Shown piece by piece: positions 980 through 57,145 of a stretch of DNA of 64,000 bases. Origin of the DNA: a phage. The stretch lies in the sequence record PZ495249.1; one strand, written 5' to 3'. Each line of letters opens with the position of its first letter. Position 1 is the first letter of the stretch. The notes beneath the pieces were generated by a model that made no database searches, had not been told where the DNA came from, and worked only from the letters and a program-made list of their open reading frames with translations. The position numbers and the translations under genes are program-made.

Positions 980-1879
980 TTATTTGTAATTTTTACGAAG
1001 ATTGCCGTTCAGAATGAAATTCTGGAGCGCTTGTTGGTTTAACACCAGTTTACCTGTCTCGTCAACATTATTCTCCCACACATTGAAAGAATGGATGCAA
1101 TCAAAGTGCTCATTTAGTTCTTTCATACCCTTAGAGAAGATACCGTGGGTAACGAACAGTTCAATCTTACCAGCGTTACGTTCACGCAATACTTTGGCAA
1201 GCTCAATGAAAGTACGACCACCATCGCAGATATCATCCACGATCATCAAATTCTTACCGCAGAAGTCCTCGACGTTGATGTTGGTCTTGACAATATCTCC
1301 GGTCTTCGTATCACGGATTTTCTCTGCACAGTGTACAATGAGTTGCATTGGTTTAGCCAGTTTGAAGATTTTCTTCAAGGCTCCACCGTCTGGACTAACC
1401 AGATCAAACTCTTCCATACGGAGTTTCCAGTTAATCGCGAACATTGCAATCTCTTCTTGTGGGATAACAAACAAGTTATGGATTACAGCCGGAGTTACAT
1501 CACTGTGCGGATCAGCAACAGTCACACGGTCAAAGTTAAGGTTGTTAAGTGCTTCTGCAAACGCACCGATACCATTGGCTTCACCTGGTTCACACACTCG
1601 GTCTTGTCGAGCATATGGCACATAGAGCATAACAAGCTCTGTTGTGTGAGGGATGAATTTAAGAATGTTATCAATTGCATTCTTAGTCATCAGCAACACC
1701 ATGAAGTCATTACCTGATCTTACTTCGTGATGGATAATCACACGAGAACCTGGTTCAGTTAATGCAATCATCGTGTCTGCATCAACACGTACATGTTCTT
1801 CTCCGCCAGAGAAGGTGAATGTTTTGATTGGTACAGGATAAACTTCACTGTTGTGTGGGTGCATGATATCAATCTTCAT
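980..1879 (-). CDS. prs: ribose-phosphate pyrophosphokinase (PRPP synthetase)
   Basis: Track ORF 980..1915; start moved to ATG at 1879 (MKIDIM...) just after upstream stop; VSPDGGA and MIVDDICDGGRT PRPP-binding motifs. Confidence 0.8.
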   Translation of the reverse strand: MKIDIMHPHNSEVYPVPIKTFTFSGGEEHVRVDADTMIALTEPGSRVIIHHEVRSGNDFMVLLMTKNAIDNILKFIPHTTELVMLYVPYARQDRVCEPGEANGIGAFAEALNNLNFDRVTVADPHSDVTPAVIHNLFVIPQEEIAMFAINWKLRMEEFDLVSPDGGALKKIFKLAKPMQLIVHCAEKIRDTKTGDIVKTNINVEDFCGKNLMIVDDICDGGRTFIELAKVLRERNAGKIELFVTHGIFSKGMKELNEHFDCIHSFNVWENNVDETGKLVLNQQALQNFILNGNLRKNYK

Positions 1880-2081
1880 TGTCTTCCTCCTCTTCTTCAA
1901 TTTCTTCAATTTCACTTAAACGATCAAGAATTGTCTGAGCCTGGTCCCAGAGAGCATCATAGGCTCTACGCTCACGAGGAGATAGCTGTGAAGGTCTGAA
2001 ATCATCTTGGTACATCTTATCAATAATATCTTGCATATCGTTCGATGTATTCTCGAACATACAATAACTCATGTTTGACAT
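1869..2081 (-). CDS. hypothetical acidic protein (C-terminal EIEEIEEEEEDNED)
   Basis: Track ORF; RBS AAGGAGAAAGAT upstream of ATG; first gene of minus-strand unit. Confidence 0.5.
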   Translation of the reverse strand: MSNMSYCMFENTSNDMQDIIDKMYQDDFRPSQLSPRERRAYDALWDQAQTILDRLSEIEEIEEEEEDNED

Positions 2082-2111
2082 ATCTTTCTCCTTGGTTAGT
2101 TGATGGACAGG

Positions 2112-2140
2112 AGTATAGATATGTAAGATCAGTAAGTCAA
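2112..2140 (-). promoter_or_regulatory. sigma70-like promoter for the acidic-protein/prs/nadV unit
   Basis: Minus strand reads TTGACT-17nt-TATACT about 30 nt upstream of the 2081 start. Confidence 0.45.
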
Positions 2141-2355
2141 CTACTTTCTTAGTATGAATTAATTAAGGAATAGATTGACTCAGGTATGTTAGATCTGATA
2201 CATTGACAGACATGAAAGATATCTATACAGACAACTCTACTGTCTAAGAGATCTAAGTGAAACAGAATGAGAGAATCTCCCCTCGCTTCGCTCGGCAAAC
2301 TTCGTGTTTAGGGTAGCATGTTTCAAAACAAAAGTCAATACCTCAAAGGAGAAAA

Positions 2356-2496
2356 ATGAAAATTAATTTAGAACAAGTAAAAGACCTCACACCTAAGTAT
2401 AAGAGAGGCGGTGCATCACGCCGTAGAACGCTGCGTGAGGGCATTGACAAGCCACGGTTAGTGGTTTATCATCCAGAGAAAGAAAACGGCTCATAA
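2356..2496 (+). CDS. small basic hypothetical protein (46 aa)
   Basis: Not in track (<60 aa); AAGGAGAAAA RBS then ATG; MKINLEQVKDLTPKYKRGGASRRRTLREG... Confidence 0.35.
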   Translation: MKINLEQVKDLTPKYKRGGASRRRTLREGIDKPRLVVYHPEKENGS

Positions 2497-2514
2497 CGCG
2501 ATACAGGAGGTCTG

Positions 2515-2817
2515 ATGGACTTTACGCACACAACTTTGATGGGAGAGCTTCACGGATTCTACAATGGTGAAGTTTTCTGTGCTGCTTACCACGACGATGA
2601 TATGTCAGTGGAATGGGAGCAACTTGAATTTATCTCGGAGAAAGCCAGTGTGATGGTTGACTTCGACCACATCGAGTGGTACATTGGCAACTCTGTTAAG
2701 GTGGTAGGTTTGGATCGTAACCAGATCATTGATCTTGATTGCAAATTAATCAACTTCCAATTTGGGAATAAGATTCCCTTGGAGCGACAATTACAACTCG
2801 TTTGTGAGGAGGAGTGA
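2515..2817 (+). CDS. hypothetical protein
   Basis: Track ORF, start/stop-coupled with downstream gene. Confidence 0.5.
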   Translation: MDFTHTTLMGELHGFYNGEVFCAAYHDDDMSVEWEQLEFISEKASVMVDFDHIEWYIGNSVKVVGLDRNQIIDLDCKLINFQFGNKIPLERQLQLVCEEE

Positions 2818-3041
2818 TGAGTAAATATCAAAAAGGTATCTGGTATCCTTGGGGAGAAAGCGGGGATAAGCGTAATGGTTTCCCGCCTGTCCCGCTTGGT
2901 ACAAAAGTAACTGTTCGTCATCGTGACGGTGACGTGATTCCTGATCAGTTTGTAGGGTATGGTGCTGCCGAAACATGGGTAGTAATCAATGACCGTTACT
3001 GGGACGGTGATATCATGGCTTTTATGGTTGAGGAGGAATGA
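2814..3041 (+). CDS. hypothetical protein
   Basis: Track ORF, ATGA overlap with neighbours. Confidence 0.5.
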   Translation: MMSKYQKGIWYPWGESGDKRNGFPPVPLGTKVTVRHRDGDVIPDQFVGYGAAETWVVINDRYWDGDIMAFMVEEE

Positions 3042-3253
3042 TGGAGACTATCTACCGTGTAACCCTGGGTGGTATTCATGATGTTAAATCGACGTACAAC
3101 TACGCAGAGGCGAAGGAACACTTCCTTATGTGGGTTCAAGAGGAGATTATGGATGAAAAGGTGGCTTATAAAAGTGTGACGCTAACTGCCGATCATGAGC
3201 CAATCCTGGAGTATATTCGTCAACCCTACCCAGAGGAGTTTGACAATGAGTAA
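3038..3253 (+). CDS. hypothetical protein
   Basis: Track ORF, ATGA coupling. Confidence 0.5.
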   Translation: MMETIYRVTLGGIHDVKSTYNYAEAKEHFLMWVQEEIMDEKVAYKSVTLTADHEPILEYIRQPYPEEFDNE

Positions 3254-3929: not shown

Positions 3930-4270
3930 GAATCTGGCTTGATGATTTACGTGATCCAAGAGATTACGGATACCCTGATGCCATCTGGGTTAAAAACTCC
4001 ATTGATTTCAAGCTGCAACTTATTGATTGTCTGCTTATGGAAGATGATGGTGATAGCCTGGTAGCGATCCACTTTGACAACGATATTGGAGAAAAGACCG
4101 AAGGTTATCACCTCTTCTTAAAAGTGGAGGAGATCATTCATGCTGGAAAATTCAAGGGCTTGAAAGAAATCTTTGTCCATACGTCGAATTCAGGGGCGGC
4201 TCAGAAATTTATGCTTGCAAAAGACGGGTTAGCTCGTTATGATGTGAACATAATTCGTAAATACTATTGA
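3926..4270 (+). CDS. hypothetical protein
   Basis: Track ORF 3911..4270 trimmed to ATG at 3926 (ATGA coupling). Confidence 0.5.
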   Translation: MRIWLDDLRDPRDYGYPDAIWVKNSIDFKLQLIDCLLMEDDGDSLVAIHFDNDIGEKTEGYHLFLKVEEIIHAGKFKGLKEIFVHTSNSGAAQKFMLAKDGLARYDVNIIRKYY

Positions 4271-5785: not shown

Positions 5786-5961
5786 TGGCTGATTTCAGCT
5801 CGACAAAACGGAATGCTTCTCTTGAGGATTGGGGAGAAGCTCTTGAGTGTATGGTTGAACTTAACGGTAAATCGTTCGACATTACAGAAATGGAGATCGA
5901 GGCAGCTTATGAAGCATATAAGCGTGTAGACGATTTCTATTATGAAGAATGGGAGGACTGA
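5785..5961 (+). CDS. hypothetical protein (58 aa)
   Basis: Not in track; ATG overlaps upstream stop; fills gap before 5961. Confidence 0.35.
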   Translation: MADFSSTKRNASLEDWGEALECMVELNGKSFDITEMEIEAAYEAYKRVDDFYYEEWED

Positions 5962-11911: not shown

Positions 11912-11915
11912 TATA

Positions 11916-11940
11916 AACCCGCTTCGGCGGGTTTTTTATT
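11916..11940 (+). terminator. rho-independent terminator
   Basis: AAACCCGCTTCGGCGGGTTTTTTATT. Confidence 0.7.
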
Positions 11941-11949
11941 GTTAAAGGC

Positions 11950-11979
11950 TTGACACAGAACCACCGATTGTAGTAGAAT
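11950..11979 (+). promoter_or_regulatory. sigma70-like promoter
   Basis: TTGACA-18nt-TAGAAT just after terminator. Confidence 0.55.
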
Positions 11980-12464: not shown

Positions 12465-12485
12465 AAGGGGCTTCTGCCCCTTTCT
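12465..12485 (+). terminator. GC hairpin, weak terminator/attenuator
   Basis: AAGGGGCTTCTGCCCCTT then T-rich. Confidence 0.4.
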
Positions 12486-23820: not shown

Positions 23821-24083
23821 ATTTTGTAATCTATGGTAAACCTGACTGTCAATTCTGCACTATGGCTAAGCAGCTATTAGAGATGCGAGGTCAGGAGTTT
23901 AATTACCTCACCCTGGATGTAGATTACACTCTTGATCACATGCAAGCAGTGGTCGTAGAGAAAACAGGAATTCCACCACGTACATTCCCACAAATTTTAG
24001 TGCAGGAATCGGACGTTGCGGAGTACAAGCACGTAGGAGGTTTCACCGAACTACGTGATTTCATGGCTCAGATTGCGGAGTAA
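23817..24083 (+). CDS. glutaredoxin/NrdH-like redoxin
   Basis: Track ORF; CQFC active site in thioredoxin-fold-sized protein. Confidence 0.65.
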   Translation: MNFVIYGKPDCQFCTMAKQLLEMRGQEFNYLTLDVDYTLDHMQAVVVEKTGIPPRTFPQILVQESDVAEYKHVGGFTELRDFMAQIAE

Positions 24084-27719: not shown

Positions 27720-27923
27720 ATGGCCTACAACTACTATCTTGTGTATGTTCACGAGAACACGAAAGAAGACACTGGAACGAACGTCTACGCTGAGTCGGAA
27801 GACCATGCAAAGGCTATCGGGGCAGTTCTTCTTACACGCATGACAGGGGAAGAATTTACATCGGCTGATGTTTACGCAGAAGTAGATCCTGATATGCAAG
27901 AAGATGATATCACAACCACTTGA
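27720..27923 (+). CDS. hypothetical acidic protein
   Basis: Track ORF. Confidence 0.45.
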   Translation: MAYNYYLVYVHENTKEDTGTNVYAESEDHAKAIGAVLLTRMTGEEFTSADVYAEVDPDMQEDDITTT

Positions 27924-27948
27924 CAATAGTTTTGTGTTAGTGCATACT
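27920..27948 (+). promoter_or_regulatory. sigma70-like promoter
   Basis: TTGACA-17nt-CATACT upstream of recombinase gene. Confidence 0.5.
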
Positions 27949-27973
27949 CATTGAAACAGCATAGGAGGGTGTC

Positions 27974-28636
27974 ATGAAATTCGTACTTTACCATCGTCTT
28001 TCCAAAAAGAAACAGCAAGGCAACCAATACGGTATTGAATCACAGGAAGTTGATATTCAACGTTTCCTGGACTCGCAAGAGAACTATACCGTGATCGGGA
28101 CTTTCGCTGAATACTACTCTGGTAAAGGTGACTGGAAGCAACGTAGAGAACTGGTGAAAGCCGTGGAACTCTGCAAAGCAACTGGTGCAACACTTGTGGT
28201 TGCAAAGGTTGACCGTTTAGGTCGTAACACTGCCTCAGTTGCAACGCTTCTCGAAATGGTGAATGTTCGTATTGCTACGATGCCCTCCGCTGAGAATATG
28301 GTGATTAATATCCTCGCCGTTCTCGCAGAAGAAGAAGCACGAGCGATCTCTGATCGTGTGAGAAAAAGTTTGAAAGTTGCCAAAGAGAAAGGTATACTCC
28401 TTGGTGCTGCAAATGAAAAATACAATCGTACAGATTACTCTAAGAGAGAGGAATCAAAGCGCTCTATGGAATTTGCCATGAGCATGAAAGATTCCCTTGT
28501 TGCTTTCCGTTCAATGAACACACCGTTCATGACAATTGCAAAGCATCTTAACGAAAGCGGTAAAACTACTATCCGAGGCAGCAAGTTTGATGCGAAAGCT
28601 GTCCAGCGCTTATGTTCTAAGTTAGAAATCAACTGA
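27974..28636 (+). CDS. serine recombinase (resolvase/invertase family)
   Basis: Track ORF; YHRLSKKKQ...GIESQ catalytic-Ser region, VAKVDRLGRN, C-terminal HTH-like segment. Confidence 0.7.
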   Translation: MKFVLYHRLSKKKQQGNQYGIESQEVDIQRFLDSQENYTVIGTFAEYYSGKGDWKQRRELVKAVELCKATGATLVVAKVDRLGRNTASVATLLEMVNVRIATMPSAENMVINILAVLAEEEARAISDRVRKSLKVAKEKGILLGAANEKYNRTDYSKREESKRSMEFAMSMKDSLVAFRSMNTPFMTIAKHLNESGKTTIRGSKFDAKAVQRLCSKLEIN

Positions 28637-28647
28637 GGAGGTTTGGT

Positions 28648-33973: not shown

Positions 33974-33986
33974 GAGTGTAACTATT

Positions 33987-34010
33987 AACCCGCTTCGGCG
34001 GGTTTTTTAT
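33987..34010 (+). terminator. rho-independent terminator (same hairpin as 11916)
   Basis: AACCCGCTTCGGCGGGTTTTTTATTG. Confidence 0.7.
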
Positions 34011-34020
34011 TGCCTGAGTA

Positions 34021-34049
34021 TTGACACGTTAATCAAAACCTGGTAAACT
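34021..34049 (+). promoter_or_regulatory. sigma70-like promoter
   Basis: TTGACA-17nt-TAAACT. Confidence 0.55.
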
Positions 34050-39342: not shown

Positions 39343-39365
39343 AAAAAAACCCGCCGAAGCGGGTT
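39343..39365 (-). terminator. rho-independent terminator (same hairpin as 11916/33987, minus strand)
   Basis: Plus strand AAAAAAACCCGCCGAAGCGGGTT. Confidence 0.65.
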
Positions 39366-39382
39366 ACATTTGATATTGACCC

Positions 39383-41829: not shown

Positions 41830-42429
41830 TTAATAGGTTGCTTCATGTGGGTAGAAAAAGTACAGATCCGATTCTCGGAAGCCGAATGGTTTATTTACAC
41901 CAGGGATCATGTTCAAAATACTCCCTTTGATGTTAATTCCATTGTCTTCTTTCTGGTACTCGCCTGGGTATAAACGGAGTGTGACAGGAAAATTTACATC
42001 TCCCAGTTCCGCGAAATCCCCATCGTTGAGCAAAGTTACTTCTAAGGCTTCAACGGTTAATGGCTTAACTGCATCTTCACGTTTTCCGAGGAGAAAGTCA
42101 ATCGCTTTTTCAAGAGCGCGATTGTTGAGAACCTCTCCTGTCTCTTCAAAATATGCATCAGCCACACGTAGTGTGCGCGGATCAAGTGGTTCCTCTGCAC
42201 GTTTGAACGTCGCAGGGAGGAGAGGGCAAAGATTGATCCGCTTCTCTTCATCATACCAATGACAGATCCACACTTTGTTATACTCCATCTGGTAATCTTC
42301 CGCGATCAGAGTTACCAGTGTCCCAGTGGCTGGAACACGGTAGTAGTCACTGATAGGTGCGCCTGTAAACTTAACCACCAGACCTGGGCGGAGCGGTGAT
42401 AAACCGTCCCAGTAATCATCTCTTGTCAT
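41830..42429 (-). CDS. hypothetical protein
   Basis: Track ORF. Confidence 0.5.
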   Translation of the reverse strand: MTRDDYWDGLSPLRPGLVVKFTGAPISDYYRVPATGTLVTLIAEDYQMEYNKVWICHWYDEEKRINLCPLLPATFKRAEEPLDPRTLRVADAYFEETGEVLNNRALEKAIDFLLGKREDAVKPLTVEALEVTLLNDGDFAELGDVNFPVTLRLYPGEYQKEDNGINIKGSILNMIPGVNKPFGFRESDLYFFYPHEATY

Positions 42430-46507: not shown

Positions 46508-46690
46508 TTATCCTCCTAATAGGAAAAATCTATCAATCATTTCTGATTAATCGGGATTATCCATTTTACTTTTGCCGAAAAACATGCTACCCTAATCTTA
46601 GATGCCGAGCGATAGCGAGGTAGCTAAAAGATAGTTTTCATGAGTATCATGAAAGAAGTATACCGTAGGTACTCCTGGTATGTTACTCAC

Positions 46691-56057: not shown

Positions 56058-56375
56058 ATACCCTCCCAATGGAAATCTTTCACGACCTTCATAGTAGACT
56101 TAATTACCCAACATTTCTAATAGCTTTTCCCTATCAATTATCCCCGAATAATCGTCTATTTTCCCCGAAAGATTAGACTAAAATTTCATCAGAGAAATCC
56201 GAATTCTATCCCCGTATACCCAGTTTATTTTGACACCCCCTGTTTTGCTATGAGCAGACCGAAAATATCCTTATAGGTCAGATGGTTAGGCCAAAACACT
56301 GCGCCATTGCGTGAGGTGCTTAACGCGATTTTTCGTGCCACCCCATTTCTCGACCGCACAATCCCCAAATATCAA

Positions 56376-56390
56376 TGAGAATCATTCTCA
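56376..56390. promoter_or_regulatory. perfect 7-1-7 palindrome TGAGAATCATTCTCA, operator-like
   Basis: Identical copy at 58172-58186; related AAATGAGA-N5-TCTCATTT at 56568-56590. Confidence 0.5.
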
Positions 56391-56567
56391 ATATCATTAG
56401 CATTCAATAACTTAGCTCACATTGTATATAGTTTCATGAGTGAACAATTACTTTTCTATCTAACAAGCAATAACTCTTTATGAATCAATGAGTTGGCAAG
56501 TCTAAACATCTGTTTGAGTGTTGCCAAATGGCTCGACCGTGGGCGCTCCCTCCTCGCTCATGCAAAT

Positions 56568-56590
56568 CAAATGAGAATGACTCTCATTTG
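56568..56590. promoter_or_regulatory. inverted repeat CAAATGAGA-N5-TCTCATTTG
   Basis: Shares TGAGA/TCTCA arms with the 15-bp palindromes. Confidence 0.4.
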
Positions 56591-56710
56591 TATATATTCT
56601 GTACCACAAAAGCCCGAATAAATCAAGAAAAGTCTCAAAGTTTCTCTTTTACGAGAAGTGGCTCAACATCTCACGATGTTTCTGCCCCCAAATTATATGC
56701 TTTTGAATGA

Positions 56711-57145
56711 TTAGGGTGCTAACAGTTGCCCTACTCGGTCGCCTGTCATTGCCCCCAAAATGATTAGCAATCGAATAGTTTCACAATGAAACAATCGCTG
56801 ATGATCATACCTGCATTTGTTAGTGTGCTAACAATGCCACCCTGTTATCGTTAGTGTGCTAACGATGATACATGCTAATAATAACGCACGTAATGGTTGA
56901 CAGCGTAAGCTATTACGCTTGCAAACATTGCAAGCTACATAATAACATGAGTGACTATTAGGAATAGTCATGAAATGGTGTGGTGTAGTTGCGTTATTAT
57001 TAGCTGCCTACGTTTCCGGCGTAGGCGCTAATGATACGCTTGCTAATAATTTTCCCCGAAATAATGTACTACGTGATAGTACCCCTCCGTGATGAATAGC
57101 TTTTTGAATAGATTATTCATAAGTTAATAGTTAGAATGCTAACAA
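56711..57145. repeat. four copies of TTAG-N3-GCTAAC inverted-repeat motif (iteron/operator-like)
   Basis: TTGTTAGTGTGCTAACAA at 56817, TCGTTAGTGTGCTAACGA at 56848, TTAGGGTGCTAAC at 56711, TTAGAATGCTAAC at 57131. Confidence 0.5.

Follow-up and report, generated by a model that had tools for sequence, protein, structure and literature searches.

The window analysed here, a 64,000-nucleotide stretch of phage DNA (sequence record PZ495249.1), encodes a small serine recombinase of 220 residues (27974..28636, plus strand, ATG start), the ortholog of Phi92_gp053. We find that a two-site, inverted-repeat substrate for such an enzyme is absent from the phage genomes examined. Tentatively, we favour an early enzyme of the resolvase or cyclisation type that would act on one site per genome unit, and would not invert tail-fibre DNA. 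An earlier note on this DNA, made from the letters alone, had predicted the recombinase, a promoter of its own and a lytic-type phage without integrase context; these predictions were borne out, and the coordinates of the gene proved exact.

Complete genomes of two relatives, VEcB (OZ035773.1, 148.9 kb) and the Phapecoctavirus DIJ07P2 (OZ035771.1, 144.8 kb), both put together from unannotated records, were compared with the window, together with about 130 database genomes. Repeats were mined in VEcB, DIJ07P2 and the window with tolerance for mismatches (26-nt windows, at least 21 matches). The population-level orientation screen covered about 30 kb, and the remaining 120 kb or so of the phi92-type genome was covered by the three-genome comparison. 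Neither self-comparison nor repeat mining revealed a recombinase-type inverted-repeat pair in the window, VEcB or DIJ07P2, the mining returning only terminators, Fur-box-like palindromes, ribosome-binding site (RBS) motifs and coding coincidences. No local inverted repeat of 14 nt or longer was found near the recombinase gene, and its upstream region has no partner elsewhere in the window, VEcB or DIJ07P2. The longest inverted repeat of the window (27752-27785 against 41929-41962, 34 nt, 79%) was dismissed as a chance match because VEcB does not conserve it; those at 33986/39344 and 11916/39344, perfect over 22-23 nt, turned out to be shared terminator hairpins.

Gene orientation is also stable. 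Strand is kept in 341 of 351 pairs of open reading frames (ORFs) between genera (VEcB against DIJ07P2), the exceptions being one small segment, the recombinase gene itself and one paralog, and in 118 of 119 pairs between the window and VEcB. The 25 kb around the recombinase is collinear in all 56 Justusliebigvirus genomes, where every apparent extra place was a break at a record end. The earlier note had suggested a tail-fibre or host-range switch, with an invertible segment or a res site elsewhere in the genome. Inversion requires two sites within the same genome, and none were found, so a switch of this kind is not supported: the inverted-repeat search, run on the complete VEcB and DIJ07P2 genomes, gave no invertible segment flanked by repeats. 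A res-type site present in a single copy per genome would be compatible with these paired-site tests.

What drives expression of the recombinase? A sigma-70-type promoter is predicted at 27920..27948 on the plus strand (-35 TTGACA at 27920-27925, 17-nt spacer, -10 CATACT at 27943-27948), matching the consensus at 10 of 12 positions, and a Shine-Dalgarno AGGAGG (27963..27968, plus strand) stands 5 nt ahead of the ATG. The -35 element overlaps the TGA stop (27921-27923) of a preceding 67-aa ORF, and the 50-bp gap between this ORF and the recombinase ORF contains the promoter and RBS only. By itself, the promoter match is not above chance (14 promoter-like sites against 14.9 expected in a scan of 24-32 kb). 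We take the promoter to be real because the same arrangement recurs upstream of the ortholog in six of six divergent relatives, always with a spacing of exactly 17 nt, even though the spacer sequences differ and, in one case, so does the genomic position. The elements read TTGACT-17-CATACT in phi92 and VEcB, TTGACA-17-CATACT in FKP3, TTGACA-17-CAAACT in FBKp34, TTGACA-17-TAAAGT in Phapecoctavirus (phAPEC8) and TTGACA-17-TAAGAT in Vibrio phage P1. The phi92 promoter, which has this layout, also keeps a conserved 'TAGTGCATACT' motif, and the Shine-Dalgarno is kept as AGGAGGG in phi92 and FKP3. Such a promoter would probably be active early.

Residues 4-140 of the protein match Pfam Resolvase (PF00239; E=1.3e-20, 74.4 bits against a cutoff of 23.3 bits), and the protein also matches PHROG 125, 'DNA invertase' (1.3e-29). 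When the recombinase was aligned with gamma-delta resolvase, Gin and 16-40 family members, all catalytic residues were found to be present, namely the nucleophile S10 with R8, Q14, R57, D80, R81, R84, E121 and R128; Y6, Q24 and S49 are further conserved in the catalytic domain. S10 and R8 bear the same numbers in Tn3/gamma-delta, D80, R81 and R84 correspond to D67, R68 and R71, Q24 and S49 to Q19 and S39, and R57, E121 and R128 to R45, E118 and R125. Across 40 family members spanning about 35-100% identity, the catalytic residues are invariant or nearly so. The earlier note had named absence of the catalytic serine as an observation that would speak against it; S10 and its partners are intact by comparison with both gamma-delta resolvase and Gin, and from this active site we regard the recombinase as catalytically competent.

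An AlphaFold2 (AF2) model with a predicted local distance difference test score (pLDDT) of 87 shows a resolvase-type beta-alpha-beta core, a long helix E, a linker and a four-helix C-terminal domain. By alignment and model, the catalytic domain with helix E spans residues 1-138 (27974..28387, plus strand). Helix E itself (residues 108-138, pLDDT about 87-90) superposes on the Sin and gamma-delta structures, and a linker of 23 residues separates it from the C-terminal unit (residues 162-216; 28457..28621, plus strand), a predicted DNA-binding domain delimited by AF2 and Foldseek. In Foldseek searches the catalytic domain matches Sin, gamma-delta and TP901-1, and the best whole-chain match is the Bxb1 integrase (9iu2_A), over 250 columns. 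A family profile matches Tn3 resolvase, Sin and Gin about equally (~1e-13), in the catalytic part only. The C-terminal domain carries the motif IAxxLNxxGxxTxRG...VxRL, with A189, N193, G196 and R212 near-invariant in the family. Pfam gave no match in the recombinase to HTH_7 (PF02796), even at E<=1, and none to PF07508 (Recombinase) or PF13408 (Zn_ribbon_recom). Every NCBIfam match lies far under its cutoff (the Mpi invertase model, for example, at 28.7 bits against 272), including an alignment of residues 4-214 to positions 10-227 of the 542-position CcrB model. The IS607-type architecture, in which a MerR-like helix-turn-helix precedes the catalytic domain, does not apply, the first catalytic strand beginning at residue 2; ISC1926 TnpA gave a weak match to the catalytic domain only. 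In the model, the C-terminal domain looks like the beginning of the recombinase domain found in large serine integrases and not like the HTH_7 of resolvases and invertases. Because HTH_7, Recombinase and zinc-ribbon matches are lacking and the NCBIfam scores fall below their cutoffs, the protein is best placed in a separate clade of small serine recombinases; its DNA-binding module resembles a shortened 'recombinase domain' of an integrase.

Known serine recombinases share parts of this design. Tn3/gamma-delta resolvase and Sin are alike in catalytic fold, helix E, catalytic residues and size (~200 aa), and a single site per replicon, as in these systems, would explain the missing repeats of the window phage. 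The window recombinase, however, is only about 25% identical to them, has a 5-residue insertion after Q14, is 10 residues shorter between beta4 and helix E and differs in its C-terminal domain, which is not HTH_7; nor is there a multi-subsite res in the 50-bp gap upstream of its gene. The Hin/Gin/Cin/Pin invertases (Mu, P1, e14, Salmonella) belong to the same superfamily and, like the window recombinase, are phage-borne, but the latter is 24% identical to Gin and has no HTH_7, and its gene lies neither next to a segment flanked by inverted repeats nor beside tail-fibre genes. With large serine integrases (Bxb1, phiC31, TP901-1, CcrB) the window recombinase shares the C-terminal signature IA..LN..G..T..G....V..L. 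Those enzymes exceed 400 aa and use attP and attB, whereas the window recombinase has 220 aa, lacks a zinc-ribbon/coiled-coil domain and att context and belongs to a lytic phage; only the first helices of their recombinase domain have a counterpart in it.

By its sequence, the window phage is a relative of coliphage phi92 (Stephanstirmvirinae) and forms a distinct lineage: megablast matched its DNA to no deposited phage, and alignment to the phi92 group required blastn. The recombinase is 87% identical to Phi92_gp053, which has the same length and is labelled "recombinase/DNA invertase" in GenBank (219 of 220 residues covered). It can be assigned to the phi92 gp053 orthologous group (PHROG 125) by full-length similarity, synteny and promoter layout, the orthologs in Justusliebigvirus and Phapecoctavirus having the same neighbourhood and promoter layout. 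With tblastn the recombinase gave 161 matches, among them 56 records at 80-90% identity (phi92, VEcB, alia and other Justusliebigvirus), about 68 at 54-59% (phAPEC8-type Phapecoctavirus), Klebsiella relatives at 50-79% and Vibrio/Shewanella phages of 134-140 kb at 33-48%. IMG/VR contigs encode an identical protein, and a metagenome scaffold of 152.7 kb encodes one that is 99% identical. The organism counts for the recombinase (Escherichia 107, Campylobacter 5, Justusliebigvirus 3, Phapecoctavirus 3) equal those of three subfamily-specific DNA queries, and the adjacent methyltransferase also reaches rV5-like phages (Escherichia 220). Because the recombinase counts coincide with the subfamily-specific queries and the methyltransferase counts are wider, we read the recombinase as universal in Stephanstirmvirinae, and it appears to be absent from Vequintavirinae. 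The gene is under strong purifying selection: against VEcB, the proportion of nonsynonymous differences (pN) is 0.10 and that of synonymous differences (pS) 0.83, with synonymous sites saturated, and pN is 0.054 in the catalytic domain and 0.185 in the C-terminal domain. Its 87% identity to the VEcB protein equals that of the adjacent methyltransferase and exceeds that of other neighbours, and its base composition (GC 43.4%, GC at third codon positions 41.2%) is like that of the neighbours. We found no functional study of the phi92 gp053 orthologs in the literature.

The genes around the recombinase follow the order of phi92 gp060 to gp046. The neighbours, all on the same strand, include PhoH-like and HslV/proteasome-like proteins and a Metallophos phosphatase, as well as one annotated as N6-adenine methyltransferase in GenBank records of relatives and one annotated as DprA-like in phage FKP3, the window proteins of these last two having no Pfam match. 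None of the ten flanking ORFs scanned with Pfam is an integrase, and no tRNA gene was found anywhere in the window. In the window, the phi92-type phages and FKP3, the promoter and recombinase form a cassette between the homologs of gp054 and gp052. In Phapecoctavirus the two homologs are adjacent, the 64-bp gap between them holding an intrinsic terminator, and the recombinase lies about 17 kb away on the opposite strand, in the first early block and about 3 kb from the homolog of the terminal repeat described below (window 27924-28647 compared with the empty site at 113768-113831 and the cassette at 96204-96945 in DIJ07P2; the locus was checked in phAPEC8 and DIJ07P2). The gene and its promoter have moved between genera. 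In the deep-branching FBKp34 the recombinase likewise follows the methyltransferase and one small gene, and its apparent place at the genome end was discarded as an artefact of an arbitrary record start. Because FBKp34 uses the same methyltransferase-adjacent locus, the comparison points to one relocation in the history of the subfamily and not to ongoing mobility.

The only other rearrangement seen between genera is an inversion outside the window. A four-gene segment with a divergent promoter (phi92 gp214-gp217) lies in one orientation in phi92-type phages and in the other in VEcB/ECGD1-type phages and Phapecoctavirus (phi92 131.0-132.5 kb, or 1866-3247 of our locus L017; VEcB OZ035773 75.1-76.3 kb; NC_052663, 1866-2994 of our locus L016). 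At least 32 records have the phi92 orientation, and the remaining 24 or so Justusliebigvirus records appear to be oriented as VEcB/ECGD1 (three verified), as is DIJ07P2, the single Phapecoctavirus genome looked at closely. Through the inversion phi92 acquired gp217, in which a domain of 66 residues is joined to a protein of 112 aa. Could the recombinase have produced this inversion? The junctions contain no inverted repeat of 10 nt or longer, about 70-90 bp of intergenic DNA was lost there, and orientation follows the phylogeny of the segment: within it, genomes of one orientation class ('B') form a clade of 99.7-100% identity, while the flanks are mosaic across orientation classes. We therefore rejected this inversion as a product of the recombinase. 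It reads as an old, non-conservative rearrangement, a stable allele spread by homologous recombination and not a switch. It is the sole inversion in the subfamily and, together with the relocated recombinase gene, accounts for the rearrangements between genera.

Where might a site present once per genome lie? The region 56250-56720 of the window (best 56292-56668) is the homolog of the annotated 343-bp direct terminal repeat of phi92, at 74-76% identity within otherwise unalignable surroundings. The physical genome end of the window phage is probably inside the window, with the sequence assembled through it. The homolog contains a unique 35-bp dyad (56493-56527, TTGGCAA-N21-TTGCCAA), whose arms and spacing are common to VEcB (91988-92022); this dyad may be a terminase or end-processing site. 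Beside the terminal repeat, a 15-bp perfect inverted repeat (GCTAATAATAACGCA / TGCGTTATTATTAGC) surrounds about 100 bp at 56874-57004 and closes a multi-hairpin element of about 130 nt (window 56865-57015), which folds far better than shuffled sequences (RNA z -5.7 on the minus strand and -6.5 on the plus strand). The 15-bp repeat is conserved in three genera (window, VEcB and Phapecoctavirus), with a compensatory CG-to-GC change of both arms in Phapecoctavirus, and one arm overlaps a possible signal-peptide ORF (MKWCGVVALLLAAY...). About 125 bp of this element is the only part of the terminal region that aligns in non-Justusliebigvirus relatives (an 801-bp query matched 133 records). Rfam returned nothing in the window, and the element is unannotated in every record. 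As an inversion site the 15-bp repeat was rejected, since it has one orientation in three genomes, one per genus; the element also aligns as a single piece in every Justusliebigvirus genome without a record end there (~56 genomes). A structured RNA or DNA element by the genome end is the likelier reading.

Eight 7-1-7 palindromes of the form AATGAGAATCATTCTCATT (at most 3 mismatches; 0.09 expected by chance) are confined to 56.3-62.9 kb, at 56374, 56570, 58170, 58765, 59922, 61604, 62802 and 62877. The phi92 terminal repeat has two copies of the palindrome, which read AATGATAATCATTATC, presumably the E. coli Fur-box core without a mismatch. Such palindromes hint at early promoters under iron or repressor control at the genome end. 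Other repeats of the window lie farther off. A 31-nt inverted repeat (81%, core TTAGGGTAGCATGTTT) joins 2308-2338 and 46565-46595, its arms 44 kb apart. Terminator hairpins are re-used at 11912-11956, 33983-34027 and 39344-39366, and also at 12466, 18620, 24746 and 38426; a TTGACAC promoter follows the hairpin AACCCGCTTCGGCGGGTTTTTT in two copies, and the third is inverted near the strand-switch region at 38.7-39.4 kb. A second hairpin family reads AGGGGCGTAAGCCCCTT. Finally, a 28-bp dyad at 24030-24057 (CACGTAG-N14-CTACGTG) contains AGGAGG, is conserved syntenically in VEcB (116829) and may be an RBS-sequestering hairpin.

Homologs in 80 IMG/VR loci were surveyed for their contexts. In one (L091, UViG_641736179_000004), a homolog of 34% identity and the same architecture is accompanied by three copies of TTTTGAACACATGTGCGAGCCT in mixed orientation, 17-22 bp long (2428-2449, 3996-4015 and 5914-5930), the last about 60 bp upstream of its recombinase gene. 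These sites flank genes for HNH-like and CoiA-like proteins (assigned by eye from translations), and the island appears to carry a tyrosine integrase. The locus looks like a multi-site inversion/deletion system unrelated to tail fibres. Since it has three such short copies, one of them by the gene, we take it that enzymes of this architecture do act on short specific sites. In temperate-phage loci the homolog is recurrently associated with the packaging module. It abuts an Sf6-type small terminase gene (terS) in four loci (L057, L073, L083 and L099), between terS and the large terminase gene terL in L057 and L073, and abuts a probable large terminase in L033, L035 and L037; the large subunits in L057, L073 and L083 are of the Terminase_3/6 families. 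In marine relatives the homolog stays beside a homolog of the DprA-like protein of the window. A single bacterial relative was found, in Aeromonas (40%); its neighbour in a small satellite-like integrative element is a large serine integrase, and no sites were evident there.

What could the recombinase do with no pair of sites? A site present once per genome is favoured because no other site-specific scheme on phage DNA can be squared with the absence of repeated sites; the short sites at the L091 homolog also count in its favour. The locus would be a self-contained early unit made up of a promoter for host RNA polymerase, an RBS and one gene; conservation of the promoter in six of six relatives and the place of the Phapecoctavirus gene in the first early block, by the terminal repeat, support this part of the scheme. 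The recombinase would be made early after infection and would bind DNA through its recombinase-domain-like C-terminal helices. Ser10 would mediate double-strand cleavage, followed by subunit rotation and religation. The target would be a site present once per genome unit, and the reaction, resolvase-like or cyclisation-like, would take place between copies on replicating multimeric or terminally repeated phage DNA. Several observations weigh against this scheme. No candidate for a single-copy site could be pinned down, and the 50-bp region upstream of the gene contains no dyad conserved across genera. The 35-bp dyad of the terminal-repeat homolog keeps only its right arm in Phapecoctavirus, and with an odd number of base pairs it is hard to reconcile with a 2-bp crossover. 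It is not obvious why a phage packaging from concatemers should need to resolve multimers, and the gene was relocated between genera without a recognisable accompanying cis element. Our preference for a resolvase- or cyclisation-type enzyme acting once per genome unit therefore remains tentative.

A more specific proposal, which we consider doubtful, is that the recombinase either carries out a Cre-like reaction on a once-per-genome site in or beside the 343-bp terminal repeat (the 56.3-56.7 kb homolog) or serves as an early weapon on host or satellite DNA. Cre of P1 is an early recombinase with a single-copy site, loxP, within the terminal redundancy, and serves both to cyclise DNA entering the cell and to resolve multimers. 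This logic would fit a recombinase without an intragenomic site pair, and also the terS-adjacent homologs, although the analogy is functional only, Cre being a tyrosine recombinase; no recombination site was identified in the 343-bp terminal repeat. Taken on its own, the trans-acting alternative, in which an early recombinase would cut, excise or rearrange sites in the host chromosome, prophages, satellites, plasmids or defence islands, ranks next after the one-site scheme on phage DNA, and we hold it to be unlikely but worth entertaining. It would account for the lack of a substrate in the phage genomes, for an early host-type promoter among genes of host-manipulation or anti-defence type (methyltransferase, phosphatase, HslV-like, PhoH-like) and for the closest bacterial homolog residing in the Aeromonas satellite-like element. 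However, the hosts of the family span E. coli, Klebsiella, Vibrio and Shewanella, which makes a conserved host site unlikely; PADLOC returned no match and nothing links the enzyme to any target, and rearranging a doomed host brings no obvious benefit.

The remaining explanations have less in their favour. A classical DNA invertase, which would flip a segment flanked by inverted sites and carrying, for example, receptor-binding proteins or a promoter, is improbable. The name of PHROG 125, the three nearby sites of mixed orientation at the L091 homolog, and a real inversion polymorphism in the subfamily, which with the relocated recombinase makes up the only rearrangements between genera, all point its way. 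Yet the window, VEcB and DIJ07P2 lack a recombinase-type repeat pair, the gp214-gp217 junctions have neither repeats nor conserved length and behave as alleles, the 15-bp repeat at 56874-57004 keeps one orientation in three genera, the 25 kb around the gene is collinear in 56 genomes, and identity to Gin is low; moreover, phi92 carries all its fibres at once. We give similarly little credence to a selfish or moron-like cassette, in which the promoter and recombinase would propagate themselves with little or no benefit to the phage. Its different locus and orientation in Phapecoctavirus, where the flanking homologs are adjacent, would suit such an element, as would the terS-terL slot, classic for mobile genes, of L057 and L073 and the abutment to terS in L083 and L099. 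But the cassette is fixed at one locus in 56 of 56 Justusliebigvirus genomes and is present in about 68 Phapecoctavirus-type records, the locus shared with FBKp34 implies a single relocation, the gene is under strong purifying selection with fully ameliorated composition, and terminal repeats or target duplications are lacking. Least probable of all, to the point of being hardly credible, is a domesticated DNA-binding protein, a regulator or architectural factor that has lost recombination. It would explain why no substrate pair was found, and NCBIfam gives a weak match to B. subtilis YneB, a recombinase-like protein; against it, neither the nucleophile nor any catalytic Arg, Asp or Glu varies among homologs of about 35-100% identity, and constraint on the protein is strongest in the catalytic domain.

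Annotation of the gene is ordinary: over 100 phi92-like genomes in the databases already list it as "recombinase/DNA invertase". What is worth knowing is the negative result, that the usual explanation by a tail-fibre or host-range switch misfits this phage group. The gene also bears on the safety assessment of phages for therapy, where candidates with "invertase/integrase-like" genes are frequently flagged. Should the enzyme act on a site that is short and defined, genome engineers could also take an interest in its compact two-domain form, a catalytic core with a minimal integrase-type DNA-binding module. For the phages themselves, a fixed orphan recombinase that is universal, conserved and apparently early in therapeutic-type lytic coliphages is a small puzzle. 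A Cre-like reaction, if true, would cyclise incoming linear DNA or reshape replicative multimers, and either this or a role as a weapon would be new for small serine recombinases in virulent phages.

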